From assembly GCA_964544145.1 (NCBI GenBank), contig CAZJAT010000004.1, positions 16,177 to 80,176 on the forward strand: 64,000 nt of DNA, given 5' to 3'. The notes beneath the pieces were generated by a model. The model did not search any database, was not told the origin of the DNA, and worked only from the letters and a program-made list of their open reading frames with translations. The stretch's first letter is position 1. Every line of letters begins with the position of its first letter. This document shows positions 1,147 to 41,434 of this stretch, in pieces. Source of the DNA: an uncultured Bacteroidales bacterium. GTDB lineage: Bacteria > Hydrothermota > 32-111. The translations under genes were made by a program, and so were the position numbers.

Positions 1147-1523
1147 TGAGCAGAATAGGCACATTTTTCAAGGCATATTGGAAGATTTTTCTATATTTCC
1201 TGGGTGTCTTGCTGCTTATATGGATTGCATTTCTCCTTCATATTGATAAAAGGGTTATCGCTTTTTCTGTTATAATCATCGGATTTATCACACAATTATT
1301 TGCTGAAATTCTGGGTATTGTGGCTCTAATACCTATTTTAGGTCCCGTACTTGTCAAGATAATTTCATTACCATTTATAATCATTATTAATGGTATTGGC
1401 TATATAGTTACTTTTTTTGCATTCAAGAAGGGATACAAGGTTGAAGTGGCAAAATCAAAGATGTTTACTACAGCATTACTGATTGGAATTGTATTAGGTT
1501 TTATATTGGGGAAATTATTATGA
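1146..1523 (+). CDS. small polytopic membrane protein (3-4 predicted TM helices), GTG start
   Basis: The protein is hydrophobic throughout, with a GTG start at 1146. It is coupled to the downstream gene by an ATGA overlap at 1520-1523. Confidence 0.4.
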   Translation: MSRIGTFFKAYWKIFLYFLGVLLLIWIAFLLHIDKRVIAFSVIIIGFITQLFAEILGIVALIPILGPVLVKIISLPFIIIINGIGYIVTFFAFKKGYKVEVAKSKMFTTALLIGIVLGFILGKLL

Positions 1524-4381: not shown

Positions 4382-7300
4382 CATCTGCATTAATTATTAA
4401 TGCAGACATTATAGACCCTGTTTATCATATTGAGGAAGACGGGAATTATTCCTTTATTCGGGGTGAATATCAATTGATTGCTGAAAGACCGGGTTATCCT
4501 GCAATTCCTGTTATAAGACTGAATTTGAGCAGAGGAAGTGAAATATCATATTTTAAAATCATTGAAACAGATACAATTTTACTTTCATTGCCTTTGGTTC
4601 CCATAGGGGAGTATATTGAGAAAAAGTCTGAATTGCAGAACATATATATACCGGATAAAGAATTGTATATAGAAGACAGGATGCTTATAAGAACTGATTA
4701 CAATGAATATACAATGGGTAAAGGGAAGATTGTTGAGCTATTCCCCTTCAATTACAATCCGTCAGAGAATATGCTGATAGTCAATAAAATAGAGATTCAT
4801 TATTCCTCAATTCCGGCTTTGCCGGAAATCAGTGATAATAATATAGTGATAATATATAATGAGCAATTCAGTGATATCTATGATGAAACAGAGAGTTTTT
4901 TCATTAGGCGCGGAAAGATACCATATATGTACTCAATGACACAGACAGGCAGAACGGCAGACAGTATAGGTATATTTATTGATAGTATTTTCAGTGAAAA
5001 ACCCTTTTCATATCTTCTGCTTATGGGCAGCTCATCAATGCTTCCCGGTAATTGGGGACTGGGCGATGGGAATCCCTATACTGACTTATCATATGCATTG
5101 ATTGATACCCTGGATTATTTACCTGATATTATTTTGTCACGCCTGCCATTTGATTCATCAGCGCAGTTTTTGCATTATTATAATAAAATGGAACAATCAA
5201 TGAATGCAAATGCACTAACAATGAGGGATAATGCATATTTTATGGCTTCAAATGATTACGGATATCACACTTTGGCTGAAAGCACACAGATATATTCAAT
5301 GGAAAAATTCCGTGCAATTGATTATGAAACTGATTCTCTCTTCTATTATTACAATACGGGAACACCTGTTGATGAGGCAATAGATGAGGGGAGAGCCTTA
5401 CTCTTCTATACAGGACATGGATTAACTTATGAATGGAATGGACCCTCATTTGACAGAGATGATATTGATTCTCTGAAGAATGCACCATTTTATCCTTTTA
5501 TATTTTCATTTGCCTGTCTTACCGGCAATTATTATTATGGAGGTTTTTTCGGTAATCACTGGTTGAAATTGGAGGATAAGGGAGCCATTGGTTTTATGGG
5601 GTCATCAAAGGAGACATTTTGGGAACAGGATGATTTATTCCAACGATTCATGGTGGATTCCCTTGTGCAGGGTGACTACATATTTAATGCAGTGAATAAA
5701 GGCAAAATCAATTTCTTTAATTATTATGGTAATTCATCTGTTACGAGAAGATACTTTGAACAATACAATTATTTTGCAGTGCCTGATATATATGTTGGAA
5801 ATACGGATGTGAGTAATATTTCCATATCCGTTGACAGATACATTCCTCTTTCATCAGGTAATATTGACTGCACTATCGGATATGACGGTATTCTTGGGGA
5901 ACCCGGTTTCCTGGTTGTCTGCGGAGATTCACTTATTGACTCATCAAGAATTTCAGCGCAGGGTGAATATATACTCAATCATTCAATCCTATTATCAGAT
6001 ACATTGGCCTTATCACTGTATATTCCGGGGCAGCAGCTGTTTAAAGAGGATATTGTGCTCATTGACAATGGCCCCTTTGTTGCGCTGAAAGACCAATTTA
6101 TTTCGGATATAAAAACAGATACATTGTTTATTGATATGGATATAAAAAATTATGGGAATAATACTGCATATAATATTTCATCCTATATGAAACATTTGCC
6201 CATTTATATGACTGTATTGAATAATAGTATTTACATAGACAGCATGCTTCCGGAATCTATAGAATCGATTGGTGATGCCCTTGTTCTTTTGACAGGCGAT
6301 AATTCGGGCTCCGGAGCAGATACGCTCTGCACTTTAGGTTTTGTTTTTGACTATGACACAGTGTTTTCAGTATTCTCTGTAGCTGATCTTGCGCCCTCAT
6401 TTGATGCGGTATTTATTGAAGCAATATGCACCAATGACACTTCTTCCTCAATAACACTGGGTATTGCAACAGACATTTTTTTCCAAGTCCGTAATACATC
6501 CAAGATAAAAGCAAAAAACATATCAATTACTATAGATGGCGAATTCAATACTGTATATTCTAGCGGGGAATGTGATTCATTACTGTCAATGCAGACATTC
6601 AATCCTGCATTCGGTATTATTGTTGAAGATTCAGAGGATGATGAGGTCATAATAAACATGACTGTCAGTATGGGGTCATATTCTGAAGGGAAAATATTCA
6701 GAATACCTCTTAAACTCAAGAATTCCTATTCATTCATAGGTCCAATGTCCGGTTATTATATCTATACTTCAGATATGATTGACCTTGAAAACAGGCCGGA
6801 ATTCAAGGATATACGAAGCGATTCGTCAGGATGGAGTTTGATTGATGTCAGAGATGATGAAACTGTCAGTTTATCTCTGCCATTCACATTTAAAACAGGG
6901 GATGATTCATTTGATATATTGTACCTGAATGCAAATGGCATTATCTCAACAGATTCAATAGAAAGTTCATTATTCGGGGTTACTGCATTGCCAAACAGCG
7001 GAATAACTGGTAAAGCATTTATTTTCGGATGGCATGACTTCAGATTTCCTGAATTGACATATATATCGGATTATCTTGGGGATCTTAGAGGCAGTGCGCT
7101 CTACAAAATCAATGCATTAAATACGGAATTCCAGATATTGTACAATAGGGTGACAGATTATAATAATGATACATTTACATTTTCAGTATGCATAGATACA
7201 ACAAATATACTGATTAATTTCTATGAAATTCCCTATGATAATAATCTGGTAAATGGGATTCAGTTCAGCAATAGTGAATATATTTCATTCACAGGTGATT

Positions 7301-7674
7301 CATTCTCAGATGTGCAGGGGAATCCGCTGATAAGGGATTCATTCGCAATGATATTCACAAGAGATTTACCTGTTATGATGACAAAATTCAGCAATGAGAA
7401 ATATACAGGCACCCATGCACCTATACTCATGTCGGGAATAATGTACAGACAATCTACAAGTTTCATTATCGGTGTATTTGAACCCGGTATATATGAAATC
7501 AGATTATATGACATAGCAGGCAGATTACAGTCAGAACTTTATTCCGGATTTCTGAACAGAGGTAATATTGTTTTGCCAAATACTGCAGAAACTGATGGTA
7601 TTTATTTTATTACAATGTCAGGTAATAAAGGAACAGTCCTTTCCCGAAAAATCATTATACTGGGTGAGCATTAA
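4282..7674 (+). CDS. C25 (gingipain-like, clan CD) cysteine peptidase with a T9SS C-terminal sorting domain, of PorU-like size
   Basis: The His-Gly/Ala-Cys dyad context is LLFYTGHGLTYEWNG ... FIFSFACLTGNY. The C-terminal CTD motifs are GIYEIRLYDIAGRL and GIYFITMSGNKG...KIIILGEH. An N-terminal Sec-like signal (KTYRFKNSFVRLLLAFGLWCGILTSALIINA) is encoded in a 100-nt out-of-frame overlap with the preceding gene. The next in-frame ATG is at 4681 and would remove that signal. Confidence 0.55.
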   Translation: MVCHIEVGCCKTYRFKNSFVRLLLAFGLWCGILTSALIINADIIDPVYHIEEDGNYSFIRGEYQLIAERPGYPAIPVIRLNLSRGSEISYFKIIETDTILLSLPLVPIGEYIEKKSELQNIYIPDKELYIEDRMLIRTDYNEYTMGKGKIVELFPFNYNPSENMLIVNKIEIHYSSIPALPEISDNNIVIIYNEQFSDIYDETESFFIRRGKIPYMYSMTQTGRTADSIGIFIDSIFSEKPFSYLLLMGSSSMLPGNWGLGDGNPYTDLSYALIDTLDYLPDIILSRLPFDSSAQFLHYYNKMEQSMNANALTMRDNAYFMASNDYGYHTLAESTQIYSMEKFRAIDYETDSLFYYYNTGTPVDEAIDEGRALLFYTGHGLTYEWNGPSFDRDDIDSLKNAPFYPFIFSFACLTGNYYYGGFFGNHWLKLEDKGAIGFMGSSKETFWEQDDLFQRFMVDSLVQGDYIFNAVNKGKINFFNYYGNSSVTRRYFEQYNYFAVPDIYVGNTDVSNISISVDRYIPLSSGNIDCTIGYDGILGEPGFLVVCGDSLIDSSRISAQGEYILNHSILLSDTLALSLYIPGQQLFKEDIVLIDNGPFVALKDQFISDIKTDTLFIDMDIKNYGNNTAYNISSYMKHLPIYMTVLNNSIYIDSMLPESIESIGDALVLLTGDNSGSGADTLCTLGFVFDYDTVFSVFSVADLAPSFDAVFIEAICTNDTSSSITLGIATDIFFQVRNTSKIKAKNISITIDGEFNTVYSSGECDSLLSMQTFNPAFGIIVEDSEDDEVIINMTVSMGSYSEGKIFRIPLKLKNSYSFIGPMSGYYIYTSDMIDLENRPEFKDIRSDSSGWSLIDVRDDETVSLSLPFTFKTGDDSFDILYLNANGIISTDSIESSLFGVTALPNSGITGKAFIFGWHDFRFPELTYISDYLGDLRGSALYKINALNTEFQILYNRVTDYNNDTFTFSVCIDTTNILINFYEIPYDNNLVNGIQFSNSEYISFTGDSFSDVQGNPLIRDSFAMIFTRDLPVMMTKFSNEKYTGTHAPILMSGIMYRQSTSFIIGVFEPGIYEIRLYDIAGRLQSELYSGFLNRGNIVLPNTAETDGIYFITMSGNKGTVLSRKIIILGEH

Positions 7675-7694: not shown

Positions 7695-8687
7695 TCAATT
7701 ATTATCTATATACTCAGTAATCACCAATGTTGCTAAAAGTGCCGTGAATAAAAGGATTGTGACAAAATAAATCCTAAATAAAATAATGATAAACCGGATT
7801 ATATTCAGCGGATAATCAGTGTTCAATGAATTAAACGGATTCTTGATTCTCTCATTGAATAGGTGTTTCTGCTCAAGAAATCTGCTTATTATCAGTCTTT
7901 GATCTTCATTCTCATAATCAGCACATATAGTCAGTATAGAATCATTTAAGTAGTCAGAACAAAATGTAAATATAATGCCATTATAAACTCTTGTAGATGA
8001 AATTATCTTTTTGTCTCTATACAGTGCACCCCTGATCTCATATTCAGGATACATTCCCTGAAGATAGAAAATGCTCTGTTGAAATACCTTTGAATAGGAT
8101 GAGTCAGTCAATAAAATGACAGGTTTATTATTTAATATGAAATATTCATTGTATGGATTCAAATCATTTGCTGTCAAACGGATATGCCTTACTTTACTGC
8201 CTTCAAGCGATATCTGTGTGTCATTCATGCAATAAAAGGAGTCATTATATTCAGTTGTGAGGGTGCAGGGAACAAATGAACCGCTGTAGGTTTTCACAAG
8301 TATCTTTAAAACATTACCATCATAGTAGGCAGTATCAATACCTGTATCATTTTCATTTAAATGGATATCATTAAATCCTCTTTCATCAGAGAAGTGCAGA
8401 AATGAATTTGAAAAAGCAGTATCAGACACAATTAATGTGAATAATGATGAATAACGATTAATAATTATTTTTGATTTCTCATATTTACCAAATGTCTTTG
8501 CATAAGAACCGTGACTGCTGTATGTAATAATGGGACCGCAGTGGTTGGTGTTCATTTCATAAATAATCAGCACAGCAATAATAAGAAAAGAAAACAGGCG
8601 AAGAAAGAATCTCCGCCTGTTTTCTTTTAAATAACTCAGAATAAGTGAAGCAATTATTATAACAGCAATAAAAACATATATTATCAT
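7695..8687 (-). CDS. hypothetical membrane protein (N- and C-terminal TM segments)
   Basis: It is coupled to pckA by an ATGA overlap at 8684-8687. TM segments are present at both ends. No conserved motif was recognised. Confidence 0.4.
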   Translation of the reverse strand: MIIYVFIAVIIIASLILSYLKENRRRFFLRLFSFLIIAVLIIYEMNTNHCGPIITYSSHGSYAKTFGKYEKSKIIINRYSSLFTLIVSDTAFSNSFLHFSDERGFNDIHLNENDTGIDTAYYDGNVLKILVKTYSGSFVPCTLTTEYNDSFYCMNDTQISLEGSKVRHIRLTANDLNPYNEYFILNNKPVILLTDSSYSKVFQQSIFYLQGMYPEYEIRGALYRDKKIISSTRVYNGIIFTFCSDYLNDSILTICADYENEDQRLIISRFLEQKHLFNERIKNPFNSLNTDYPLNIIRFIIILFRIYFVTILLFTALLATLVITEYIDNN

Positions 8688-10228
8688 AATTGCAGATTTA
8701 TCTTAGCAATTTGCTTGTCAAAATCGCCTGCAAGTTCTTTTGCCTTCTTTTTATATGCCTCTTTATCAGACCATGTATTAATAGGATTAAATATCTCTGA
8801 AGGTATATCCGGACATTTTGTAGGAATGCTCAGATTGAAAAAATCCTCATTAACAAATTCAATATTCTTGAATTCTCCTGTAATTGCAGCTTTTACCATA
8901 CGTCTTGTATACTTAATTGATATTCTCTCTCCAATACCAAAGGGTCCGCCTGACCAACCTGTATTCAGCAGATAAACATCTGCTTTATATTTATTGATTT
9001 TTTCTCGCAGCATTTCTGCATATCTCTGCGGATGCAGCATCATAAAAGGTGCGCCAAAACACATGGAAAATGTCATTTGAGGCTCTACAATGCCGCGTTC
9101 TGTCCCTGCCAGTTTGCTTGTATAACCAAGCACAAACTGATACATTGCCTGTTTAGGCGTTAATCTGGATATCGGAGGAATTACGCCGAAAGCATCGGCT
9201 GTAAGGAATATTACAGTTTTAGGCTGATTACCTGTTCCCTCTAATACTGCATTTGGAATATAATGAATAGGATATGCACCCCTTGTGTTCTGAGTGTATC
9301 TGTCATCACTGTAATCGGGCATTCTGGTTTTTTCGTCAAGAACAATATTTTCCAATAATGTACCGAATTTTAATGCATCATAAATTTGCGGTTCATTTTC
9401 ATGTTTTAGATTGATAAGCTTTGCATAACAGCCGCCTTCAAAGTTGAAAACTCCGTTTTCCCCCCATCCATGTTCATCATCACCAATGAGTTTTCTTTCA
9501 ATATCAGCTGATAATGTTGTTTTCCCTGTGCCTGACAAACCAAAGAATAGTGCAGTATTACCAGAATCATCTGTATTTGCAGAGCAGTGCATGGGGAAGA
9601 TGTTTTTAAATGGCAGCATATAATTCATTGCCGAGAACATAGCTTTCTTGATTTCTCCCACATATGATGAACCGGCAATAACAATAAGTTTTCGTTTTAA
9701 ATCCAATATCACATATGCCTCGGAATTTGTATTATCCCTCTCAGGTACAGCTTTGAATCCGGGTGCACATATAATGTTGAATTCAGGCTCAAAGTTTTTC
9801 AACTCATCTTCTGTGGGTCTGATAAACAGATTTCTTGATGCAAGATTCTGCCCTGCATATTCATTCACAACTCGTAGGGGAACTCGAAAATCCTTGTCTG
9901 CTCCGACAAATCCGTCAAATACAAAGATGTCCTTATTCTGTAAATATGAAACAAGCAGTGAATGGAGATAATCAAAATGTTCCCTTGTAATGGGTTTATT
10001 TATCTTTCCCCAATTAATGTGTTCATGTGTGAAATCATCATCTACGATAAATCTGTCATTTGGTGAACGGCCTGAATATTTGCCTGTATTGACATTCAAG
10101 GCGCCGTTTGAAGCCAATTCTCCCTCATTTTTCTCTAATGCCTTCTCAATGAGCAGTGCAGGACTAAGATTCCTAAAGATATTTGCTTCATTGATAATAC
10201 CGAGTTTTTCCAATGATATGTTATTCAT
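8684..10228 (-). CDS. pckA: phosphoenolpyruvate carboxykinase (ATP)
   Basis: It has the kinase-1a Walker A FFGLSGTGKTTLS and the LIGDDEHGW motif. The 514-aa length is typical. An SD (GGAGG) lies 9 nt upstream on the minus strand. Confidence 0.9.
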   Translation of the reverse strand: MNNISLEKLGIINEANIFRNLSPALLIEKALEKNEGELASNGALNVNTGKYSGRSPNDRFIVDDDFTHEHINWGKINKPITREHFDYLHSLLVSYLQNKDIFVFDGFVGADKDFRVPLRVVNEYAGQNLASRNLFIRPTEDELKNFEPEFNIICAPGFKAVPERDNTNSEAYVILDLKRKLIVIAGSSYVGEIKKAMFSAMNYMLPFKNIFPMHCSANTDDSGNTALFFGLSGTGKTTLSADIERKLIGDDEHGWGENGVFNFEGGCYAKLINLKHENEPQIYDALKFGTLLENIVLDEKTRMPDYSDDRYTQNTRGAYPIHYIPNAVLEGTGNQPKTVIFLTADAFGVIPPISRLTPKQAMYQFVLGYTSKLAGTERGIVEPQMTFSMCFGAPFMMLHPQRYAEMLREKINKYKADVYLLNTGWSGGPFGIGERISIKYTRRMVKAAITGEFKNIEFVNEDFFNLSIPTKCPDIPSEIFNPINTWSDKEAYKKKAKELAGDFDKQIAKINLQL

Positions 10229-10503: not shown

Positions 10504-10530
10504 TTGACATAATGTATTTAATATGATAAT
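10504..10530 (+). promoter_or_regulatory. candidate sigma70-type promoter (TTGACA -35, GATAAT/TAATTT -10) in the 349-bp AT-rich pckA / 10578-gene divergent intergenic region
   Basis: TTGACA is at 10504-10509, with imperfect -10 candidates 15-17 nt downstream. A strong SD (AGGAGG) sits 8 nt before the ATG at 10578. Confidence 0.3.
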
Positions 10531-10577
10531 TTAAATTGTCTTAATTTAATATTTATAAACATCATAGGAGGTATGAT

Positions 10578-11918
10578 ATGAAAAAGCGTGTACTTATTAT
10601 GGGTGCCGCGGGAAGAGATTTCCATAATTTTAACACCTATTTCAGGGATAATAAGGATTATGAGGTCATCTGTTTCACTGCAACACAGATACCCGATATT
10701 TATGGCAGAAAATATCCTGCATCATTAGCAGGGAAACTGTACAGTAAGGGTATTCCTATTTATGATGAGAAGAATCTTGAATCACTCATCAAGAAGCATA
10801 AGATTGATATCGTTGTATTTGCATATTCTGATGTGCCTCATCAGTATATCATGTCAAAAGCGTCTGATGTGCAGAATGCAGGAGCATCATTTATGCTGCT
10901 TGGTCCGAATGATACAATGGTAAAATCAAAAAAACCTGTTATTTCAATAGTGGCAACCAGAACGGGATGCGGAAAATCCCAGACAACACGGAGAGTATCG
11001 GAGATATTGAAAGAAAAGGGTTTTAAACTTGTTGCAATAAGACATCCAATGCCTTATGGTGATTTGGCCAAACAGAAAGTACAGAGATTCGCATCAATAG
11101 CAGATTTGAAAAAGCATAAATGTACAATTGAAGAAATGGAAGAGTATGAACCGCATATCAGCAGAGGTACTATTGTGTATGCCGGTGTTGATTATGAGGC
11201 AATTGTCAGGGAAGCAGAAAAAGAAGCTGATATTATTCTCTGGGATGGCGGGAATAATGATTTTTCATTCTATAAAAGTGATTTAACCATTACAGTGGTT
11301 GACCCCCATAGACCAGGACATGAATTGGAATATTATCCCGGAGCAGTTAATACACGTCTGGCAGATGTTATTGTTATCAATAAGATCGATTCAGCTGAAC
11401 CCGATTATGTGCAGGAAGTCAGAGAAAATATTGCACAAGTCAATCCCAATGCCATCGTAGTTGATGCAGCATCCCCTGTCAGTGTGGAAAATACCTCAAT
11501 AATAAGGAATAAGAGAGTTCTGGTTGTTGAGGATGGTCCTACATTGACTCATGGTGAAATGCAGTATGGAGCCGGTGTTGTCGCTGCAATGAGATTCGGT
11601 GCAAAAGAAATCGTTGATCCGCATCCTTATGCAGTCGGGGAAATCAAAAAGACATTTGAAAAATATTCAGAAGCCGGTCCAATCCTTCCTGCAATGGGAT
11701 ATTCACCCAAGCAGATTAAGGATTTACAGACAACAATAAATAAGGTTAAATGTGATTCTGTTGTTATTGCTACACCTATTGATCTGAGACGCCTTATTAA
11801 AATAAACAAGCCGTCTGTAAGAGTCGGCTATGATCTTCAGGAAATCGGAAAACCCGAACTTAACGGTATTATCAGCGATTTCCTTAAGAAGAAAAAGATT
11901 AAAACAAAGAAAAAATGA
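10578..11918 (+). CDS. cyclic 2,3-diphosphoglycerate synthetase-like protein (DTBS/CobQ-class deviant P-loop)
   Basis: N-terminal VLIMGAAGRDFHNF and ISIVATRTGCGKSQTT (a GT-x-x-GKS type P-loop) resemble the cpgS family from memory. I could not verify this without a search. It is the first gene of a 5-gene coupled operon. Confidence 0.45.
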   Translation: MKKRVLIMGAAGRDFHNFNTYFRDNKDYEVICFTATQIPDIYGRKYPASLAGKLYSKGIPIYDEKNLESLIKKHKIDIVVFAYSDVPHQYIMSKASDVQNAGASFMLLGPNDTMVKSKKPVISIVATRTGCGKSQTTRRVSEILKEKGFKLVAIRHPMPYGDLAKQKVQRFASIADLKKHKCTIEEMEEYEPHISRGTIVYAGVDYEAIVREAEKEADIILWDGGNNDFSFYKSDLTITVVDPHRPGHELEYYPGAVNTRLADVIVINKIDSAEPDYVQEVRENIAQVNPNAIVVDAASPVSVENTSIIRNKRVLVVEDGPTLTHGEMQYGAGVVAAMRFGAKEIVDPHPYAVGEIKKTFEKYSEAGPILPAMGYSPKQIKDLQTTINKVKCDSVVIATPIDLRRLIKINKPSVRVGYDLQEIGKPELNGIISDFLKKKKIKTKKK

Positions 11919-12853
11919 AGAAAGCTGTACTTGCATTAGGCGGTAATGCCTTGATTCAAGAAGGACAGAAAGGTGTTGTCCGGGAACAGTTTGCTAATAC
12001 AAGAATGTCCCTTGACGGAGCAGTTGAATTGCTCCGTCAGGGATTTTCAGTTGTAGTAACACATGGGAATGGGCCTCAAGCAGGACATGAAATGCTCAAG
12101 AATGAATTGGCATCAGCAGAAACGCCGTCATTGCCTTTAGGTGTTATTGTTGCTGAAACACAGGGATTTATAGGATATATGATAGCTCAATCTCTGATGA
12201 ATCGACTCAGGAGAGAGGGAATTGAAAAGAATGTGAGTGTTGTAGTTACTCAGGTGCTAGTATCACAGGATGACCCCTCTATACTTAATCCATCAAAATT
12301 TGTAGGTAAATTTTATATGGAAGAGGATACACATGAATTGCTTAATAGAGGATGGCATATCAAGAAAGATGCAGGAAGAGGATTCAGAAGGGTTGTTCCT
12401 TCACCTGAACCGATTGATATTATTGAAAAAGATGCAATCAATGAACTCTTGAACAAAGGGGATATCGTTGTTGCTGTAGGTGGAGGCGGGATTCCGGTTT
12501 TCAGGGATAAAAACGGATTTTTAGAAGGAATGGATGCAGTTATTGATAAAGATAAAGCATCTTCATTGCTGGCAAAACAAATTAATGCTGAAAAATTTAT
12601 TATAATGACTGCTGAGAAATATGTATGTATTAATTATAGAAAACATGATGAAAGAATGCTCACTGAGCTTACTGTAAATGATGCTGAGAAATATTTGAGA
12701 CAGGGACAATTTCCTGCAGGTTCAATGGGACCGAAGATTAAATCAATGATTGACTATGTAAGAGATACAGGATACGAAGGCAGAATAGGATCCATTGATC
12801 TGGCAAAGGATGTTGTTAACGGTAAGTCAGGGACAGCTATCATCAATGGATGA
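11915..12853 (+). CDS. arcC: carbamate kinase
   Basis: MKKAVLALGGNAL...VVVTHGNGPQ and a length of about 310 aa fit carbamate kinase. It overlaps the upstream gene by ATGA. Confidence 0.85.
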   Translation: MKKAVLALGGNALIQEGQKGVVREQFANTRMSLDGAVELLRQGFSVVVTHGNGPQAGHEMLKNELASAETPSLPLGVIVAETQGFIGYMIAQSLMNRLRREGIEKNVSVVVTQVLVSQDDPSILNPSKFVGKFYMEEDTHELLNRGWHIKKDAGRGFRRVVPSPEPIDIIEKDAINELLNKGDIVVAVGGGGIPVFRDKNGFLEGMDAVIDKDKASSLLAKQINAEKFIIMTAEKYVCINYRKHDERMLTELTVNDAEKYLRQGQFPAGSMGPKIKSMIDYVRDTGYEGRIGSIDLAKDVVNGKSGTAIING

Positions 12854-13263
12854 TTATGGAATATACACTGCTGTTAATAAAACCAGACGCAGTTGAACGA
12901 AATCTCATAGGACATATTCTGGAGCGTATTGAAAACGAGGGATTTAAAGTAATTAATTTGAGAATGGAACAGATGAACAGAGCAAAGGCAGAAGAATTCT
13001 ATTCAGTTCACAAAGAAAAAGATTTTTTCCATGGGCTTGTCGATTATATGGTTTCGGGGAAAACAGTGGGAGTTCTTCTTCAAAGGGAAAATGCTGTTAA
13101 TCATCTGAGACATTTTATAGGCAATACAGATCCTGCAGATGCTGAAAAAGGCACAATAAGAAATCAATTCGGACAGACACTCAGAAGGAATTCGGTTCAT
13201 GCAAGTGATTGCAGAATATCTGCTGAACGCGAAATAGATGTATTCTTTAAGGAGTATAAATGA
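12850..13263 (+). CDS. ndk: nucleoside diphosphate kinase
   Basis: LLLIKPDAVERNLIGHILERIENEGFKV and the active-site His context NSVHASD are present. It is 137 aa. Confidence 0.8.
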   Translation: MIMEYTLLLIKPDAVERNLIGHILERIENEGFKVINLRMEQMNRAKAEEFYSVHKEKDFFHGLVDYMVSGKTVGVLLQRENAVNHLRHFIGNTDPADAEKGTIRNQFGQTLRRNSVHASDCRISAEREIDVFFKEYK

Positions 13264-14111
13264 AAATATCAAAGATCGGATTCTATGGCATCAGAAATAC
13301 GGGGGCAGGACTTGTGCAGACAGTGGCATCTGAGGGATTGGCTGCTGTTGTTTATGAAAAAAATGATGATATTTATCACAATGCTTTATCAGTTATCGAG
13401 AATAATGTTGATTATGAGATTGAACATTGGGGTATGACAAGAAAAGATAAGAAAATACTCATGTCGAGAATTGAACATATTGATTCTTTTTCAGATTTTA
13501 TGAAAAATGATATTGATATTATTGTGGAGAGTGTGGAAGAACAGATTGAAATAAAAAAACATGCAATAGAGAAAATTGAAAATGAATTGACTCTCAATAT
13601 TCCGGTGGTATTAACGGCTCAGATAAACACATTGAAGGATATACTGAAAGACAGTAATCTGGCCTCAAGAGCAGTCAATATTCACCCTGTGCCGTCAGTG
13701 CCGACATTTAAGATAGTTGAGATGGTGAGAAGCTGCTCTGTCAATGAGGCGTCAATGGAGATCCTGAAGAGCTTCTTTGACAGACTTGATTTAAAGGTTA
13801 TGGAAATAGCAGATTGTCCCGGAGGTATTGGCCCGAGAATATTTATTTCAGCTGTAATTGAATCATGTAATGCCATAAGCCAGTATGGCATTGATGAGAT
13901 TATGGCAGATAATATTTTGAAAATAGGTTTGAGAATGTATAAGGGACCTTTGAAAATGGCGGATGAACTCGGTTTGGATACTGTGAAAACATGGATTGAG
14001 GAGATGAACAGAATTGCAGGAACAAGATATGAAGTTCCTCAATTGCTTACTGATATGATGAATAGCGGATTAAATGGTTTAGTGAATAAAAAAGGATTTT
14101 TAACATATTAA
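13260..14111 (+). CDS. 3-hydroxyacyl-CoA dehydrogenase-family protein with an altered dinucleotide-binding motif (GxRxxG)
   Basis: It shows collinear similarity to Hbd. The central NIHPVPS matches HFFNP with the catalytic His. The C-terminal GPLKMADELGLDTV matches the 3HCDH_C motif. In the N-terminal motif GIRNTGAG the second Gly of GxGxxG is replaced by Arg. Confidence 0.6.
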   Translation: MKISKIGFYGIRNTGAGLVQTVASEGLAAVVYEKNDDIYHNALSVIENNVDYEIEHWGMTRKDKKILMSRIEHIDSFSDFMKNDIDIIVESVEEQIEIKKHAIEKIENELTLNIPVVLTAQINTLKDILKDSNLASRAVNIHPVPSVPTFKIVEMVRSCSVNEASMEILKSFFDRLDLKVMEIADCPGGIGPRIFISAVIESCNAISQYGIDEIMADNILKIGLRMYKGPLKMADELGLDTVKTWIEEMNRIAGTRYEVPQLLTDMMNSGLNGLVNKKGFLTY

Positions 14112-14123
14112 AAGCAGGGTTTT

Positions 14124-15329
14124 ATGAAGATATTAGTGTTGAATTCAGGTTCATCATCATTGAAATATCAGATAATTGACACAGAGAAAGAAGAGTGCCT
14201 TGTAAAGGGGCTTGCAGAAAAAATCGGTATGGTTGATTCATCAATTAAACAGAAACGTTTTGATGGTGATGAGATTATAGTTCAGCAGGAGATTATCAGT
14301 CACACAAAAGCCATAGCTCAGATGCAGAATCTGATCCTGGACAAAAAACATGGTGTGCTGATGAGTATCAATGAGATTGATGCAGTGGGTCACAGGGTTG
14401 TGCATGGAGGTGAAAAATTCTCAGCTTCTGTTCTTATTGATGATACTGTTATTGATGCAATTGAGGAATACTCAGAAATTGCACCATTACATAATCCGTA
14501 TAATCTCAAGGGAATATATGCTGCCATGAAAGAATTGCCTGATGTACCGCAGGTTGCTGTCTTTGATACAGCTTTCCATCAGTCATTACCGGAACATGCA
14601 TATATTTATCCCATACCATATATCTTTTATGAAAAGCACAAAATAAGAAAATACGGCTTCCACGGCACATCTCATTATTTTGTTTCACGCAGGGGCGCAG
14701 AAATATTTGGAATGGACATAAAGGATACAAAGATTATTACCTGCCATATAGGGAATGGGGCATCTATAGCAGCAGTTGAAGGCGGTCGTTCGATTGATAC
14801 CTCTTTGGGATTCAGCACTATTGCAGGTGTAATGATGGGAACCAGAAGCGGAAATCTTGATCCTGATGTGATACTTAAAATTATGGATAAGGAGGACCTT
14901 ACAATTGAACAGGCAGAATCTCTGCTTACAAAACATTCGGGATTAATGGGCGTGAGCGGTATATCCAGTGACATGAGAGAGGTTATCAAAGCATCTGAAA
15001 ATAATAATAAAAGGGCAAAATTAGCAATAAAGATGTTTGCTTACAGAATCAGGAATTATATTGCATCATATGCTGCTGTGCTGGGAGGTCCTCAGATGAT
15101 AATATTTACTGCCGGTATAGGTGAGAATGTACCTCTAATAAGAGAATTATCGCTTGAAGGTTTAGAATTTATGGGAATAAAACTTGATAAAGAAAAGAAT
15201 GAGCAGGTGAGAGGAACTGAAGATGTAATTAGTACAGATGACTCTCCTGTAAAGATATATGTTATTCCAACAAATGAGGAACTTGTCATTGCTAAGGATA
15301 CAGAACGGATTGCTCATAAAGAGAATTGA
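14124..15329 (+). CDS. ackA: acetate kinase
   Basis: MKILVLNSGSSSLKYQIID is the acetate/propionate kinase N-terminal signature. It is 401 aa. Confidence 0.9.
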   Translation: MKILVLNSGSSSLKYQIIDTEKEECLVKGLAEKIGMVDSSIKQKRFDGDEIIVQQEIISHTKAIAQMQNLILDKKHGVLMSINEIDAVGHRVVHGGEKFSASVLIDDTVIDAIEEYSEIAPLHNPYNLKGIYAAMKELPDVPQVAVFDTAFHQSLPEHAYIYPIPYIFYEKHKIRKYGFHGTSHYFVSRRGAEIFGMDIKDTKIITCHIGNGASIAAVEGGRSIDTSLGFSTIAGVMMGTRSGNLDPDVILKIMDKEDLTIEQAESLLTKHSGLMGVSGISSDMREVIKASENNNKRAKLAIKMFAYRIRNYIASYAAVLGGPQMIIFTAGIGENVPLIRELSLEGLEFMGIKLDKEKNEQVRGTEDVISTDDSPVKIYVIPTNEELVIAKDTERIAHKEN

Positions 15330-15370
15330 CAGTATAGATTCCAGAATTATATTTCCTATAAAGGAGATAT

Positions 15371-15571
15371 ATGAAAATCAATGGTGATATGTATGTTGAG
15401 GATATTGTACAGGAATATCCAAAATCTGTAGCATTTTTAATGGATAAAGATATTATATGTATTAAATGCGGAGCGCCCGTATGGGGATCGCTCAATGAAT
15501 TGCTTGAGGAAAAGGGGATTGAAGACAAGCAGAAGCTTATTGATGAGCTGAATGCCTATCTTCAGACATAA
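15371..15571 (+). CDS. DUF1858-type small redox/disulfide domain protein (hybrid-cluster-protein-associated family)
   Basis: The 66-aa protein has VEDIVQEYPKSVAFLMDKDIICIKCGAP, with a CxxC motif. An SD (AAGGAGA) lies upstream. Confidence 0.55.
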   Translation: MKINGDMYVEDIVQEYPKSVAFLMDKDIICIKCGAPVWGSLNELLEEKGIEDKQKLIDELNAYLQT

Positions 15572-17095: not shown

Positions 17096-18502
17096 ATGAG
17101 AAAAATATATATTTTTCTATTATTTATTACTGCATATATTACTGTATTAGCTCAATGGTCTTCCATCAGAACTGTATGGTTTTATGCAAATGCATATTTT
17201 CCTCCGACATCAACTCATGTTGCAGGTGTGGATACTTCAGGTAATACATATCTTGTCTGGCATGACCATATATTTGAGTTTGAATTTGATATTGTGCAGC
17301 ATAAGTTTAATGGTACAAGCTGGTCAGGCTGGCAGAGAGTAGATGATGCATTATCCGGTCAGGGATATTACGGACTTTCGAGAATGCCGTCTATCTCAGT
17401 AGAACCTGATGGTAAACGTCTGATTGTCTGGGAGGATATGAAAACAGGATATTTTGAATTACATTCCAAATATTACAATAACATTGATATACCTTCCCAG
17501 AGGCAATTGACTGACGACAGTGCTTATACTTGGTATCCTAAATTACAGTATGCAGATAACAGGCATCATCTCTTCTATATAGACAGTAAAAGCGGAGTAT
17601 TTAATATTTATTACAATTATTATGATTCATTATGGCATAATGAAGAGCATGTGATTGCAGTAGATAGTGCATGTAATGATTTCTCATTCTATGCTTACAA
17701 TGATTCAACAATGGTGCTTTCTTTTCTGATGAAACCTTATGAATATGACAATCTCTATTATTCAGTTAAATCAAATGGCATATGGAATACGCTGCATCCC
17801 CTGTTCACAGGGAATTTTGATGTAACTTATCCGAATATAATAAGTAATAGCACCAACACGTTTATTCTGTTTACTGCTAATATTAATGGTCTTTATCAGC
17901 TTTTCATGTCAAAATTCAATGGAATATCATGGTCAATGCCGGAGCTGATAAGCAATAATGAGACAAATATCATGCATCCTACAGGTATTATCAATGGCAA
18001 TGATTTTCACATATTTTTCATTTCAGATGAATTCCCTAATGGTATTATCAAACATTCTGTTTATGATATTATCAGTGACAGTATTGTAAGCACAGAAACA
18101 GCAGTGGAGGTGAGAGAGGGACCGATATATTCACCCAAAGTTGTTATTGATTCAAATGGCAATCTTCAGCTGATGTTCACATGTGCTGATGGCGAAAGGA
18201 CTTCAAACAGGGGGCCGAACAATATCTATCATCTTACTCTGAGCGGAGTTAAGAGCAATATTACTGAAACTGTTAAACCATATGCTTTGAGCAATTATGG
18301 GAATTATTATAGTATATCAATGACAGATGATAATGATTACTCTATAAGCATACTTGATAAGACGGGCAGATGCATTGCTGATATGCCGGGTGATAAGAGA
18401 CTGATACTTGATAATAGTTATTTTAAACGCAATGATATATATTTTCTGATAATAAAAACTAATAAAAACATTTACACTGAAAAGGTCTTATGGTTAAACT
18501 GA
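17096..18502 (+). CDS. secreted Trp/Tyr-rich beta-propeller-like protein with a T9SS CTD-like C-terminus
   Basis: The signal peptide is MRKIYIFLLFITAYITVLAQ. Repeated NG(T/I)SWS, GIWNT elements are BNR/propeller-like. The C-terminal SISILDKTGRCI and IYFLIIKT...KVLWLN look like CTD motifs D and E. Confidence 0.45.
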   Translation: MRKIYIFLLFITAYITVLAQWSSIRTVWFYANAYFPPTSTHVAGVDTSGNTYLVWHDHIFEFEFDIVQHKFNGTSWSGWQRVDDALSGQGYYGLSRMPSISVEPDGKRLIVWEDMKTGYFELHSKYYNNIDIPSQRQLTDDSAYTWYPKLQYADNRHHLFYIDSKSGVFNIYYNYYDSLWHNEEHVIAVDSACNDFSFYAYNDSTMVLSFLMKPYEYDNLYYSVKSNGIWNTLHPLFTGNFDVTYPNIISNSTNTFILFTANINGLYQLFMSKFNGISWSMPELISNNETNIMHPTGIINGNDFHIFFISDEFPNGIIKHSVYDIISDSIVSTETAVEVREGPIYSPKVVIDSNGNLQLMFTCADGERTSNRGPNNIYHLTLSGVKSNITETVKPYALSNYGNYYSISMTDDNDYSISILDKTGRCIADMPGDKRLILDNSYFKRNDIYFLIIKTNKNIYTEKVLWLN

Positions 18503-21500
18503 GAATATCCTTACTGATTTTTGCTGTTGTCTATTTGAGTGTAATGGCAGATTTTTCAATTATCAGCAATGAAGGCAATAATATCTCTGTTTTTTACAAT
18601 GGTATTTACAGTGAAGGCGGGAAAGCAATAATATTGCCTCCGAATGATAATTATTCAATCTCCGTATCTCCATCAAATGCATTTGATAAAAATCAGTATA
18701 GAGCAATTTATTCAGGTGATATGCATTTGCTGCCTCTTCCACAGACTGATGAGGCATACACAATTAGTGTAAATTATGATAATACAAGGGTGTTTGGAAA
18801 GAGGATTATTCCTGAAAGCGATATAATGTCTTCATTTTCAGACATAATTATTAATAGTGAGAATATTGCGGAGTTTATCAAACCGAGAACGCCTATTCAT
18901 TTTAAAGCTTCATATACAGGATTGCCTGTATTGAAAATGAGGATAGACAGTAGTGGAATATACAGGGTATATTACAGTCAGCTCAATGCTGTGACTGATA
19001 TTGAGCTTTCAGGGATTAACCCGCGAAACATACAGCTGTTTTGCAAGAATAAGGAAATACCTTTATATATTAGCAATATTGCTGATTCTTCATTTAATGC
19101 AGGTGATTTCATTGAATTCTTTGCAGAGAGGAATGATGGAGAAGGATACCGTTATTTTGATAAATACAATATTGAAAATGTATATATACTTACAGTGGAA
19201 GGAAATCCGGGTTCCAGATATGTTCAATTCACATCAACCATTTCACATGACTCATTGATAGCAGCGAATATAGAATCTCATTACAGAACAGTTCATGTTG
19301 AAGCAGACAGTTTCTTCTACAGATTCCAGACAGTATCTGCGGATACCAGTGATTTTTGGTTTGACAGATATATGAATGACCCGAACACATATGATATAAA
19401 TATTGATTTAAATGACAGAATTGCGGACAGTCCTTTAATATTGACATCATATTTACATGGTGTATCCCATTTGGGTATAAACCCTGACCATCCGCTTGAT
19501 ATATATATGAATGACAGCATCATAGAATCAATCAATTGGAATGACCAATTGCCTTATTATTATAAGAGTGATTCCATTGTTCTTCCGGATACAAATGAGA
19601 TATGTGTAACATATCATGTGAAATCAATTCCGGGAGATACATCAAGCAGTGATTCCCTTCTGTTCAATGATATAATGCTTAATTGGACAGAATTGACATA
19701 TGAGAGGGCATTGAGGCCTGAAAACGGTTATCTGGTTTTTTCAATGGATCCGAGAGAAGGATATGGCAGATTCAGATTCCGGATTACGGGTTTTGCCAAT
19801 AGCAATGTTGAAATTCTACGAAAAGACTTAAAGAGAATTATCGGTTTCAATGTATTATATGATACACTTACATTTACATATACTGTAATCTTTGAGGATG
19901 ATATATATACCACGGGTGTTCAATATGGTGTTTATGAAAGATCAAATTTGCATACACCCGATGAAATTGAAAGATATGAATATGCAGATTTAGCATCATC
20001 GCTGAATAGGGGTAAATTTGTTATTATATGTCCTCAGGAATTAAAAGAGGAATCTGCTGAGATAGCCAATCTATTTGATGAGGATGTTTTTATTGCCGGA
20101 ACGGAAGATATCTATAATGAATTCTCAGATGGATTTGTACGTCCATCGGGAATAAGGGATTTCCTTCGTGCGGCATATAATAATTGGGAAATAGCTCCGA
20201 CACATGTTCTTCTGCTTGGGGATGCTTCCAGAGACCAGAATAATCATTTAAACAAAAAACAGTATTATATACCTAATGGATATGTATACGGTCTAGTGGA
20301 TTTCGGCTATTCATGCTCAGATAACTATTATGGCAGAGTAGTGGGTGAGGATGTACTTGAAGATATCTCTGTATCAAGATATCCGGTTAAAACAATAAAT
20401 GATATTTATAATCTCAAATCAAAAATTATTCACTACACAGATCCTCGAAATATGGGTACGCATTATCTGAGAGCTTTAATGGTCTATGACACCACAGAAT
20501 ACATACGCAGTGAAAATGATTCAAAAACGCTGGGAAGTATGCTGCCTTTTTATCTCTATCCCAAATATATGCACACATTCCAAAGCTGGGGCCCCGATTT
20601 TATTCCGGAACTGTATAAAGGTGCATTTGTAATGAATGTGCTTGCACATGGAGCAATACGTTCAATTGGCTATGGAATGTATTTGAGGATTTTTGATGTA
20701 TATAGATATAACAACATATCCCGTCTGCCGCTTGTCAATGTTTTTTCATGCAATACAACGGAATTTGATTTTGTTGCTCCAGATACTATATCAATAGGTG
20801 AAGCATTTGCAACTGCTCCAGGCGGAGGCGCTATTGGATATTACGGAGCAACCGGGACATCAGAAGCAGGTGTCAATTTTGTTTTATCCAGAGCGATATT
20901 CAGACAGTTTACTGAAAAGGGATTGAAAAATATTGGTGATATTCTCCGTATAGGGGAAACAGAATTTTTCCTTGAAGCCAGCAATAATAATCCATACAAT
21001 TTTTTATATTATAGGTCTCAGGAGATAATGAATTATAATCTCCTTGGCATTGGTTTTCTTGATCTCAATATTCCCAAACCTTCAAATGATGAACTGTTAT
21101 TATCAAGTGAAGACCTGGGAGCCGGGGATACTCTGACTGTAGAACTCAATTCTCAGCATATTCAAAATGGCAATATGGAAAGTATAATTCTGGATATTGA
21201 CAAAAACGCTATTTCACATAATCACAGCGAGATATTTGATTCTACCGGGACAAACAATCTTATAATGCCTGATACAGTTAATATCGGTTCAATGACAGTA
21301 TTGACAGTTTCATCATCATCAGACACATCATTATTACAATATGCTTTTCCCTCTATAGGACGTGTCGGCATGTCAACTTTCGGTATGCTGCCTGCTGAAC
21401 CGGATACAAGTAGCAGATTTATTATATATGCAAAGATCAAGAATGCAGGTGCGCTTACAGAGCAGTATGCATATTATAAAAAGGAAACAGCAGGAAATTA

Positions 21501-22977
21501 TACATTTGTTTTACTGAAAAGGGATTCCAGTGATACAACCATGTTCAAATCAGATTCATTGGGACCGCTGACAGCCGGCTCATCAGATTATAAATTTCTT
21601 TATTATATATCAATGAAAGACAGCACCAGCAATATAATAAATTCTGCTAAAAAATATTATTTAGTGAAATCCCTTCCTGATTTCGGATTGAAGACAAACT
21701 CATTGGAGATAAATTCTGTAAACAGAACACCGGTAATTGAATATTATATTGAAAACTTCAGGGGCCTTTCCATACCGGGATTTGCGGTTGAGTTTTATGA
21801 AATCGGCACAGATTCAGCTATCATAACCATTGATTCTATTGCCGGTATAAATGAAATACTTTCAAAGAATTATGCTACTCTTAATGAAGATGTCTATTTA
21901 AATGATTTTACTGTGACAATGGATATCTATAATCAAATCAATGAAGCTGCTGAAGATAATAATAAAATAGTATTTGAAAATTATGACCATCTGATTATTT
22001 TAATCGATGATGATGTTGAAGATAAAAATCCGGATTTTCATCTATTGTCAGCTGATATTGAAGACAGATTCAGTAATCTTGGGTCTTTCTTATGTTTTTC
22101 AAGGAATGAATTCACTGATTCATTAAGCACTATGAAGATGTTTTCTGAAAGTGATGGAAATGTATATGAATATAATATTTTTAATGGCGATACAGTAAAA
22201 TGTGATATTAATCTCTCATTTAATGATTCCACGCTTAATGATGAAGATTATAATTTATATGCTTATGATTTTAATGACAGTGTTTATGTGAAGGTATCTG
22301 ATATTCTGGATTATGTGAATGTAAGTCTTAACACCGGTCTTAATAAGTTTACAATTGCAGATCACACAGATTCATTATCACCATATATAGCAATACTGAT
22401 TGAAAACAGTGATTATGTGGGCAATGTAATATTATCCGAAGAATGTGAATTATCATTTGTTATTGAGGATGAGAGCGGAGTAAGACCGGATGATATAACT
22501 ATCATTCTAAATAATGATACATTGACGCGGGGTGAATATTCAATATCAGAGAACACTGATATCAGAAATATTCCAATACAGATGACCAAAAACCTTGATG
22601 ACGGGATATATGATATTACTGTTATCGCAAAGGATATTTACAGTAATGAAAGCACTGAAATAATGGAGTTTAAAGTTGCTCAGACATTTGCAATACTGTC
22701 TGCAGCAAATTTCCCCAATCCTGTTTCAGGCTCATCCACTGTTTTAGCCTGCAGGCTGACTGAAAATGCAGATGAATTAATATTTCATTTATTTGATTCA
22801 TCAGGCAGAAAAATAAGACAACAATCATTTATTCCGGGTAGCGATAATATTTTCACATATGATTTTGATGTTTCAAATTTATCAAATGGAACGTATTTAT
22901 ATTACTTTGAAGCATATAAGAATGGCGGCAGTGAAAAAGTTAAATCAAAGATTCAGAAAATGAGTGTGCTTAAATGA
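18490..22977 (+). CDS. 1495-aa C25-like (clan CD) peptidase-domain protein with a T9SS CTD, a PorU-like candidate
   Basis: The signal peptide is MVKLRISLLIFAVVYLSVMA. The His-Gly/Ser-Cys dyad context is MNVLAHGAIRS ... LVNVFSCNTTEFD. The C-terminal region FPNPVSGSSTV...IFHLFDSSGRKI...GTYLYYFEAY is a classic type-A CTD. Confidence 0.55.
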   Translation: MVKLRISLLIFAVVYLSVMADFSIISNEGNNISVFYNGIYSEGGKAIILPPNDNYSISVSPSNAFDKNQYRAIYSGDMHLLPLPQTDEAYTISVNYDNTRVFGKRIIPESDIMSSFSDIIINSENIAEFIKPRTPIHFKASYTGLPVLKMRIDSSGIYRVYYSQLNAVTDIELSGINPRNIQLFCKNKEIPLYISNIADSSFNAGDFIEFFAERNDGEGYRYFDKYNIENVYILTVEGNPGSRYVQFTSTISHDSLIAANIESHYRTVHVEADSFFYRFQTVSADTSDFWFDRYMNDPNTYDINIDLNDRIADSPLILTSYLHGVSHLGINPDHPLDIYMNDSIIESINWNDQLPYYYKSDSIVLPDTNEICVTYHVKSIPGDTSSSDSLLFNDIMLNWTELTYERALRPENGYLVFSMDPREGYGRFRFRITGFANSNVEILRKDLKRIIGFNVLYDTLTFTYTVIFEDDIYTTGVQYGVYERSNLHTPDEIERYEYADLASSLNRGKFVIICPQELKEESAEIANLFDEDVFIAGTEDIYNEFSDGFVRPSGIRDFLRAAYNNWEIAPTHVLLLGDASRDQNNHLNKKQYYIPNGYVYGLVDFGYSCSDNYYGRVVGEDVLEDISVSRYPVKTINDIYNLKSKIIHYTDPRNMGTHYLRALMVYDTTEYIRSENDSKTLGSMLPFYLYPKYMHTFQSWGPDFIPELYKGAFVMNVLAHGAIRSIGYGMYLRIFDVYRYNNISRLPLVNVFSCNTTEFDFVAPDTISIGEAFATAPGGGAIGYYGATGTSEAGVNFVLSRAIFRQFTEKGLKNIGDILRIGETEFFLEASNNNPYNFLYYRSQEIMNYNLLGIGFLDLNIPKPSNDELLLSSEDLGAGDTLTVELNSQHIQNGNMESIILDIDKNAISHNHSEIFDSTGTNNLIMPDTVNIGSMTVLTVSSSSDTSLLQYAFPSIGRVGMSTFGMLPAEPDTSSRFIIYAKIKNAGALTEQYAYYKKETAGNYTFVLLKRDSSDTTMFKSDSLGPLTAGSSDYKFLYYISMKDSTSNIINSAKKYYLVKSLPDFGLKTNSLEINSVNRTPVIEYYIENFRGLSIPGFAVEFYEIGTDSAIITIDSIAGINEILSKNYATLNEDVYLNDFTVTMDIYNQINEAAEDNNKIVFENYDHLIILIDDDVEDKNPDFHLLSADIEDRFSNLGSFLCFSRNEFTDSLSTMKMFSESDGNVYEYNIFNGDTVKCDINLSFNDSTLNDEDYNLYAYDFNDSVYVKVSDILDYVNVSLNTGLNKFTIADHTDSLSPYIAILIENSDYVGNVILSEECELSFVIEDESGVRPDDITIILNNDTLTRGEYSISENTDIRNIPIQMTKNLDDGIYDITVIAKDIYSNESTEIMEFKVAQTFAILSAANFPNPVSGSSTVLACRLTENADELIFHLFDSSGRKIRQQSFIPGSDNIFTYDFDVSNLSNGTYLYYFEAYKNGGSEKVKSKIQKMSVLK

Positions 22978-32834: not shown

Positions 32835-32847
32835 TTGTCTCCCCCTT

Positions 32848-34738: not shown

Positions 34739-34799
34739 TTTTTTCTTACTTTTTTTGCTGTGTCTCTGCTGCCTGTAGAGTATTTCAGTATGATTTGAA

Positions 34800-40360: not shown

Positions 40361-40361
40361 T

Positions 40362-41432: not shown

Positions 41433-41434
41433 AA

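Follow-up and report, generated by a model that had tools for sequence, protein, structure and literature searches.

Organization of the five-gene operon

We analysed a 64,000-nucleotide (nt) stretch of DNA from an uncultured bacterium deposited as Bacteroidales (GenBank assembly GCA_964544145.1, contig CAZJAT010000004.1, positions 16,177 to 80,176 of the forward strand; hereafter the window), and focused on a block of five genes at positions 10578-15329 whose first member appears to encode the arginine synthetase ArcE. The list of open reading frames (ORFs) reproduced exactly the coordinates at which an earlier sequence-only reading had placed this block, with all genes on the plus strand: gene 1, arcE (446 amino acids (aa), 10578-11918); gene 2, arcC, encoding carbamate kinase (312 aa, 11915-12853); gene 3, ndk, encoding nucleoside-diphosphate kinase (NDK; 137 aa, 12850-13263); gene 4, encoding a divergent protein of the 3-hydroxyacyl-CoA dehydrogenase (3HCDH) fold (283 aa, 13260-14111); and gene 5, ackA, encoding acetate kinase (401 aa, 14124-15329). 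Genes 2, 3 and 5 were assigned with both NCBIfam and Pfam, and gene 4 with Pfam only. Three junctions (arcE/arcC, arcC/ndk and ndk/gene 4) are ATGA overlaps and the fourth, between gene 4 and ackA, is a 12-nt gap, AAGCAGGGTTTT; the spacing described earlier was thus read again from the sequence.

A sigma-70-type promoter was recognized at 10504-10532 by reading the sequence together with an alignment of upstream regions, a consensus scan having missed it. In the window it consists of a -35 element, TTGACA, at 10504-10509, a 17-nt spacer and an extended -10 element, TGaTAATTT, at 10524-10532. When eight upstream regions of this operon were aligned, the -35 element TTGAC(A/T), the 17-nt spacer and the extended -10 element TGnTA(A/T)TTT were conserved and the surrounding sequence was not. 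The Shine-Dalgarno sequence AGGAGGT (10566-10572), located 5 nt before the arcE ATG, was invariant in all eight regions. Only the promoter and the Shine-Dalgarno sequence were conserved in this alignment, and no ARG-box-like element was evident in it. The five genes are predicted to share a single conserved sigma-70-type promoter and to be translationally coupled.

Identity of the first gene

Arginine synthetase was described by Michimori, Yokooji and Atomi (PNAS 2024, PMC11032458) as the product of TK2200 of Thermococcus kodakarensis, a gene previously annotated as hypothetical, and was taken up again in a follow-up study (Michimori et al. 2026, PMC13260591). The enzyme catalyses Arg + ADP + Pi <-> citrulline + NH3 + ATP (PMC11032458). 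The same report noted that some homologs were annotated as putative GTPases, that some genomes have the gene near arcB or arcC, and that the family is only remotely similar to cyclic 2,3-diphosphoglycerate (cDPG) synthetase (cDPGS), which its authors used as the outgroup.

Judged from its sequence, gene 1 is a close bacterial ortholog of this enzyme. Its product aligned without gaps over 436 aa to a Thermococcus/Palaeococcus cluster built at 90% identity, with 67% identity and a score of 629 bits, and was 65% identical, again gap-free, to a protein of Pyrococcus furiosus. The gene for the latter divergently adjoins hypC and hypD; because these neighbours match Supplementary Table 1 of PMC13260591, in which arcE is PF0547, hypC is PF0548 and hypD is PF0549, we took it to be PF0547. 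Full-length similarity to proteins designated ArcE was thus 65-67%. The Thermococcales were reached stepwise: a phmmer search against 1.84 billion representatives clustered at 50% gave distant full-length relatives, including an archaeal 'GTPase', which as a query led to members from Aciduliprofundum, Desulfurococcales and Dictyoglomus, and the Aciduliprofundum protein, used as the next query, retrieved proteins of Thermococcus and Pyrococcus, with which it shares 80-82% identity. All blocks that were invariant among the bacterial homologs were retained in the Thermococcus protein.

Structural comparison gave a concordant picture. The fold neighbours of gene 1 were, in order, cDPGS, LpxK and then UreG, HypB, ParA and BioD, and Aquifex aeolicus LpxK was also named for TK2200p in the ArcE paper (PMC11032458). 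Gene 1 has the fold of a P-loop NTPase and a nucleotide pocket like that of LpxK, cDPGS being a remote relative only, and arcC, which overlaps it, lies within the window, whereas arcB does not. Homologs annotated as GTPases, only weak resemblance to cDPGS and proximity to arcB or arcC, all published for ArcE, fit gene 1 as well and support the assignment. By analogy with TK2200p, the gene 1 product would convert arginine, ADP and Pi into citrulline, NH3 and ATP, or the reverse.

The sequence-only reading had described the gene as cpgS-like, after the cDPGS gene, and the resemblance itself stood: cDPGS was the best and the sole significant sequence match among solved structures (32 bits, E 5.8e-7), as a local alignment of residues 212-320. 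An actual cDPGS would make the extremolyte cDPG from 2,3-diphosphoglycerate (2,3-DPG), and many NCBI-derived names of gene 1 homologs do read 'cyclic 2,3-diphosphoglycerate synthase'. The two proteins also share a distant P-loop fold and a similar length. However, full-length similarity to the Methanothermus fervidus enzyme (PDB 8ork, 9sxb) was not found; the structural alignment with cDPGS showed 13% identity and the sequence match reached 32 bits, against 67% identity and 629 bits to the Thermococcus ArcE orthologs. Substrate, context and taxa all differ: the genes around arcE are related to arginine and carbamoyl phosphate, no link to 2,3-DPG was evident, PMC10690619 reports cDPG only in hyperthermophilic methanogens, and the synthase name is also carried by Thermococcales members of the ArcE family, for which cDPGS is the outgroup. 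We consider this identity very improbable. A match to a well-known enzyme unrelated to cpgS had been named as the result that would overturn the earlier view; the 446-aa protein proved to be an ArcE ortholog and not cpgS, but because ArcE is itself distantly related to cDPGS, 'unrelated' does not strictly describe it.

A second alternative is a G3E-type GTPase or metallochaperone of the CobW/HypB/UreG kind. A Pfam cobW match of 24 bits, an NKxD-like motif (INKID), the location of the P. furiosus ortholog beside hypCD and 'predicted GTPase' annotations all speak for it. Yet the cobW match, the sole Pfam match of gene 1, is marginal and covers 66 residues (230-295); TK2200p prefers ADP (the rate with GDP is 8.4% of that with ADP) and has a defined arginine/citrulline reaction; and gene 1, with 446 aa, has three domains, compared with about 200-300 aa for G3E proteins. 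Such a function is scarcely credible for gene 1.

Homologs of gene 1 numbered at least 8000 in a collection of 5.8 billion proteins, at about 70% identity, and came from WOR-3, Bacteroidales, Zixibacteria, Acidobacteriota and other groups. Their source names were 'cyclic 2,3-diphosphoglycerate synthase' or 'predicted GTPase', and the ArcE proteins of Thermococcus, Pyrococcus and Palaeococcus are likewise often named 'cyclic 2,3-diphosphoglycerate synthase' or 'GTPase'. An NCBIfam scan of gene 1 returned no family at E<=0.01; NCBIfam and Pfam contain no ArcE family model, and only an occasional cobW match is obtained, which suggests that the gap in annotation is systematic. As a result of the misnaming and the lack of a model, metabolic reconstructions of metagenome-assembled genomes miss an ATP-yielding arginine pathway.

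The conservation of ArcE was unusually high, at 63-75% identity across more than 15 bacterial phyla (loci L006-L085) and at 65-67%, gap-free, to the hyperthermophilic Thermococcales (P0437/P0456). Identity of 65-67% between bacterial and archaeal sequences would imply extreme constraint, inter-domain transfer or both.

Genomic context of arcE across phyla

We then surveyed one genome per GTDB species, which gave 80 arcE loci, 63-75% identical and spread over more than 15 phyla; neighbouring genes were counted by tblastn and by clustering of ORFs, representatives being checked against NCBIfam, and 75 of the 80 loci had enough downstream sequence to be informative. In 25 of these 75, the gene directly 3' of arcE, in the same orientation, encoded carbamate kinase. 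Ornithine transcarbamylase (OTC) was encoded in 9/80 loci, seven of them ordered arcE-arcC-arcB (Melioribacteraceae, Lutibacter and Acidobacteriota). The loci contained pyrB in nine cases and pyrI in eight, and arcE-pyrB-pyrI was contiguous in six loci of the Bacteroidota type (L007, L011, L014, L034, L051 and L065); argS adjoined arcE in seven, divergently in six (L011, L014, L027, L031, L033 and L065). Also present were sucCD (12 loci), ndk (12/80), 2-oxoglutarate:ferredoxin oxidoreductase (6) and aldehyde dehydrogenase (10). The context is throughout one of arginine or carbamoyl phosphate and so backs the ArcE assignment by a line of evidence separate from sequence identity.

Two recurrent arrangements differ from that of the window. 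The Zixibacteria-type cluster reads aldehyde dehydrogenase - arcE - arcC - cca - sucCD - kor (2-oxoglutarate:ferredoxin oxidoreductase) - ndk; in L002, L005, L009, L016, L023, L029 and L037 a cluster of this kind recurred with a ferredoxin gene between sucCD and kor, and the CCA-adding enzyme was found in L002, L005 and L029. Such a cluster may represent a complete route from arginine via glutamate and 2-oxoglutarate to succinate with a high ATP yield. The Bacteroidales-type order arcE-pyrB-pyrI, often with a divergent argS upstream, parallels the position of TK2200 relative to TK2195/2196 (pyrBI) in T. kodakarensis, and hints that carbamoyl phosphate is supplied for pyrimidines in bacteria too.

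Kinases of the operon and the search for pathway partners

The carbamate kinase, NDK and acetate kinase proposed for genes 2, 3 and 5 were all confirmed by the Pfam and NCBIfam scans. Gene 2 passed the curated carbamate kinase model NF009007 (334.4 bits; cutoff 266), matched Pfam AA_kinase and scored 355.6 bits with the equivalog TIGR00746, marginally under its cutoff of 358.25. Gene 3 scored 174.7 with NF001908 (cutoff 155) and 167.7 bits with Pfam NDK. Gene 5 belongs to the acetate/propionate kinase family, with 503.7 for TIGR00016 (cutoff 293) and 503 bits for Pfam Acetate_kinase.

The carbamate kinase gene had been reported to stand without arcA, arcB or a transcarbamylase, and we found none either. 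The transcarbamylase motifs STRTR and HCLP were absent throughout the 64 kb, so that no OTC is encoded there, and no arcA, arcB or pta domain occurred among the scanned window ORFs, which lie outside 36980-42748. The operon therefore differs from the arginine deiminase (ADI) operon, arcABC(D), in which arcA occurs with arcB and arcC: neither arcA nor arcB was found in it or among the scanned window ORFs, and it has no arcD. The two systems have arcC in common, and in both arginine would be converted to ornithine, NH3 and CO2, with carbamate kinase making ATP. In the window, the place of the arcA product is taken by the P-loop enzyme ArcE, which is unrelated to it and would give a second ATP. 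A carbamate kinase gene without arcA is thus explained by ArcE standing in for ArcA.

Conservation of the five-gene operon

The order arcE-arcC-ndk-3HCDH-like-ackA was identical in 10 loci, namely the window and L001/L006, L086-L089 and L092-L095; these come from a group of relatives with WOR-3 as the closest named members. Compared with the window, the proteins of the related loci were 74-91% (ArcE), 65-82% (ArcC), 56-69% (Ndk), 50-77% (gene 4 protein) and 69-81% (AckA) identical. Because the flanking genes vary from locus to locus, the block has been kept as a unit, and its arrangement is not due to chance. Conservation of the gene neighbourhood, which the earlier reading had proposed as a check, therefore held in part: the full operon is kept within close relatives, with WOR-3 the nearest named ones, but across phyla only the arcE-arcC core recurs.

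This core-only pattern leaves room for a reading in which the five genes are simply co-transcribed central energy genes, with no pathway logic tying arginine catabolism to ndk, gene 4 and ackA. Outside the WOR-3-like group, arcE-arcC alone is common, and ackA and Hbd occur with arcE in only 2 of the 80 species; gene 4 has no connection to arginine metabolism, and neither pta nor OTC is nearby. It is difficult to reconcile such a loose association, however, with an identical order and tight packing (mostly overlaps or a few nt) maintained in 10 loci at 50-91% protein identity while the flanks changed, or with the recurrence of ndk in arcE clusters of several phyla. In a Calditrichaeota genome (L024) the order is kept except for an insertion of sucCD, arcE-arcC-sucC-sucD-ndk-hbd-ackA, and the Hbd is canonical, suggesting that the window form is a reduced derivative. 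We regard the absence of any pathway logic as distinctly unlikely.

An RNA hairpin inside arcC

About 97 nt into arcC, at 12011-12041 on the plus strand, lies a hairpin with a 14-bp stem and a 3-nt loop, followed by the U-rich sequence GGGAUUUUC, which together resemble an intrinsic terminator. A terminator scan placed the best terminator-like site of the region at 12010-12042, and no other local fold in the operon was nearly as stable (z -6.7). The hairpin was found in every operon locus tested (z -4 to -7.6), whereas arcC genes of other phyla lacked it, including those that encode a similar peptide. Across nine distinct sequences, pairing was kept in 126 of 126 cells; three pairs showed compensatory double changes and six varied one-sidedly via G.U. 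We also considered a DNA operator palindrome, which was rejected because six pairs vary through G.U wobble and G.U pairs form only in the sense-strand RNA. These observations point to selection on the hairpin as sense-strand RNA, rather than as a DNA palindrome or as peptide. No Rfam family matched the hairpin or the window. Candidate functions are partial termination, attenuation and 3' stabilization of the arcE message, and the element probably sets arcE expression relative to that of the downstream genes.

The divergent 3HCDH-fold protein

Gene 4 had been called merely Hbd-like, and that caution was justified: its product passes Pfam 3HCDH_N and 3HCDH but widely misses every curated Hbd/HADH model, the best NCBIfam Hbd score being 110 against a cutoff of 408. 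It aligns end to end with Hbd (PDB 9fbd, 4kug; E 5e-24) and keeps the catalytic His-Glu dyad. Compared with 9fbd, it has GIRNTG for GAGQMG, with Arg for the second Gly, AQINT for SNTSS, and Pro for the substrate Asn. The combination that marks Hbd (the GxGxxG motif, the Ser/His/Asn(/Glu) set and a score above the model cutoff) was thus not found. The altered sequence is itself conserved, since the IGFYGIRN-G-G block was invariant in the six orthologs aligned, and the gene was intact in every case even though it is the fastest-evolving of the five. A metagenome scan based on an alignment yielded four relatives, all inside the five-gene operon, so that the type was found only there; a single-sequence scan with gene 4 found no relatives, and a single-sequence structure prediction was unusable (predicted local distance difference test score 40). 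From these comparisons, gene 4 is classed as a group-specific derived member of the 3HCDH family and not as a bona fide Hbd.

The proposed arginine synthetase pathway

Within T. kodakarensis, ArcE, OTC and carbamate kinase make up the arginine synthetase pathway, whose yield is 2 ATP for each arginine (PMC11032458). We propose that the operon is a substrate-level-phosphorylation unit built around a catabolic, ATP-yielding version of this pathway in a bacterium with WOR-3 as its closest named relatives, a reading to which we assign a probability of roughly 75%. ArcE, in place of arginine deiminase, would convert arginine, ADP and Pi to citrulline, NH3 and ATP; an OTC encoded elsewhere than in the window would split citrulline by phosphorolysis into ornithine and carbamoyl phosphate; and ArcC, whose family assignment is firm, would then use carbamoyl phosphate and ADP to form ATP, NH3 and CO2, bringing the total with ArcE to 2 ATP per arginine. 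NDK could pass phosphoryl groups on to other nucleoside diphosphates and AckA could harvest ATP from acetyl phosphate, while the 3HCDH-fold protein is a derived family member peculiar to this group, and the hairpin in arcC would tune the expression of arcE against that of the downstream genes. A hub for nucleoside triphosphate (NTP) regeneration or substrate-level phosphorylation, as the sequence-only reading had suggested, would agree with the genes present and with ndk and sucCD as recurrent neighbours. Its other suggestion, an unrecognised carbamoyl-phosphate pathway, was apt in so far as routine annotation misses the pathway, but the route from ArcE through ArcB to ArcC had been in print since 2024. 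The locus thus adds a bacterial case to a known pathway and does not reveal an unknown one.

The arrangement resembles that of T. kodakarensis in that ArcE replaces arcA, and it shows the pairing of arcE with arcC that its discoverers remarked on in some genomes. It differs in its host, a low-GC (about 35%) bacterium rather than a hyperthermophilic archaeon, and in its linkage, the three archaeal genes (TK2200, TK0871 and TK2158) being unlinked whereas arcE and arcC of the window overlap translationally. The window operon further adds ndk, a degenerate 3HCDH-fold gene, ackA and an internal RNA hairpin, and arcB is not in view.

The same enzymes could instead serve mainly in anabolism or supply, either with ArcE and OTC giving carbamoyl phosphate for pyrimidines and cofactors or with ArcE making arginine from citrulline, NH3 and ATP while ArcC forms carbamoyl phosphate. 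There is precedent for this in T. kodakarensis, where both pyrimidine synthesis and [NiFe] hydrogenase maturation draw carbamoyl phosphate from the pathway and ArcE is able to make arginine in vivo (PMC13260591, PMC11032458). The near-equilibrium reaction of ArcE would permit it, and gene contexts outside the WOR-3-like group are in keeping with it, pyrB-pyrI directly following arcE and a divergent argS preceding it in Bacteroidales, and arcE lying near pyrBI or hypCD in Thermococcales. In the WOR-3-like group, by contrast, arcE shares a predicted operon with arcC, ndk and ackA, all of which stand for ATP- or NTP-yielding steps, and the related operon loci contain no pyr genes or arg biosynthesis genes; other phyla place arcE-arcC with the energy genes sucCD, kor and ndk. 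Moreover, disruption of the archaeal arcC hardly affected carbamoyl phosphate supply, so that the tight pairing of arcE with arcC argues for catabolism. A mainly anabolic role is accordingly judged unlikely for this operon.

Several points weigh against a catabolic arginine synthetase unit. No OTC was found in the window or in the nine related operon loci, so the pathway is incomplete within these regions; the absence of arcA applies to the scanned window ORFs, and no pta or other source of acetyl phosphate occurred among them. The reaction of ArcE is near equilibrium (dG0' -6.8 kJ/mol at 80 C; PMC11032458), and its direction is therefore not fixed by the sequence. No characterised bacterial or mesophilic ArcE was found in the literature searched. 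Of the Thermococcus cluster, which has 201 members, the 15 that were listed did not include TK2200 by name, and the genus-level cluster and PF0547 were compared instead. Gene 4 has no assigned role, and the U-tract 3' of the hairpin is weak in L088 and L095, which makes a terminator function uncertain.

A more specific proposal for the WOR-3-like group would combine these elements: a dedicated, translationally coupled ATP-harvest operon with two hitherto undescribed features, in which the hairpin, as translation-sensitive attenuator or message stabilizer, sets the ratio of ArcE to ArcC, Ndk and AckA, and in which the 3HCDH-fold protein has lost canonical NAD(H) binding and been repurposed for a new catalytic or regulatory role in acyl-phosphate or arginine metabolism. 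We offer it as a speculation that is rather doubtful as a whole.

The catabolic reading matters because ArcE would raise the yield of arginine fermentation from 1 to 2 ATP, and in the literature searched it was found for one hyperthermophilic archaeon only; no paper was found that pairs WOR-3 with carbamate kinase. The enzyme is conserved across more than 15 bacterial phyla and, in uncultured peptide-degrading lineages, is linked to carbamate kinase, NDK, succinyl-CoA synthetase and acetate kinase. What the window adds is modest: the composition of the operon, a degenerate paralog of the 3HCDH family and a covarying hairpin inside a gene. The coupled bacterial arcE-arcC operon, the hairpin and the degenerate Hbd paralog provide concrete targets for experiments.

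Neighbouring genes and the remainder of the window

As had been reported, a gene for phosphoenolpyruvate carboxykinase (ATP) (PEPCK; pckA, 8684-10228, PEPCK_ATP 713 bits) adjoins the operon divergently on the minus strand. We considered pckA as a member of the unit and rejected it: the adjacency is lost in relatives, with different upstream neighbours in L001, L087, L088 and L089, and is kept only by the same-sequence assemblies L090 and L091. pckA thus probably belongs outside the operon. A 330-aa ORF on the same strand (7695-8687), with no Pfam or NCBIfam family, overlaps the pckA stop with its start by 4 nt (8684-8687) and is therefore probably co-transcribed with it.

Downstream of ackA, a 66-aa ORF with a CxxC motif (15371-15571, plus strand) begins after 41 nt and is preceded by a near-consensus promoter-like sequence, TTGACA-16-TATATT, at 15326-15353. 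It had no Pfam match at E<=1e-6; small ORFs at the same position carried a weak precomputed DUF1858 match in L001, L086 and L089, and none in L088. The ORF may be a sixth gene of the operon or the first of the next unit.

Elsewhere in the window, a minus-strand block at 31698-47805 resembles a division and cell wall (dcw) cluster, with ftsZ, ftsA, a murB-like gene, Mur ligases, a penicillin-binding protein, mraW and mraZ (the ORFs at 36980-42748 lay outside the scan). Several very large predicted proteins were also noted, and plus-strand ORFs at 50-493, 1520-4381, 4282-7674 and 18490-22977 were flagged beside the housekeeping block. The first of these carries the Por_Secre_tail sorting domain of the type IX secretion system, and a relative of the last in L086 carries Peptidase_C25. 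The content is otherwise housekeeping and fits a peptide degrader of the FCB (Fibrobacteres-Chlorobi-Bacteroidetes) group or a WOR-3-like one.

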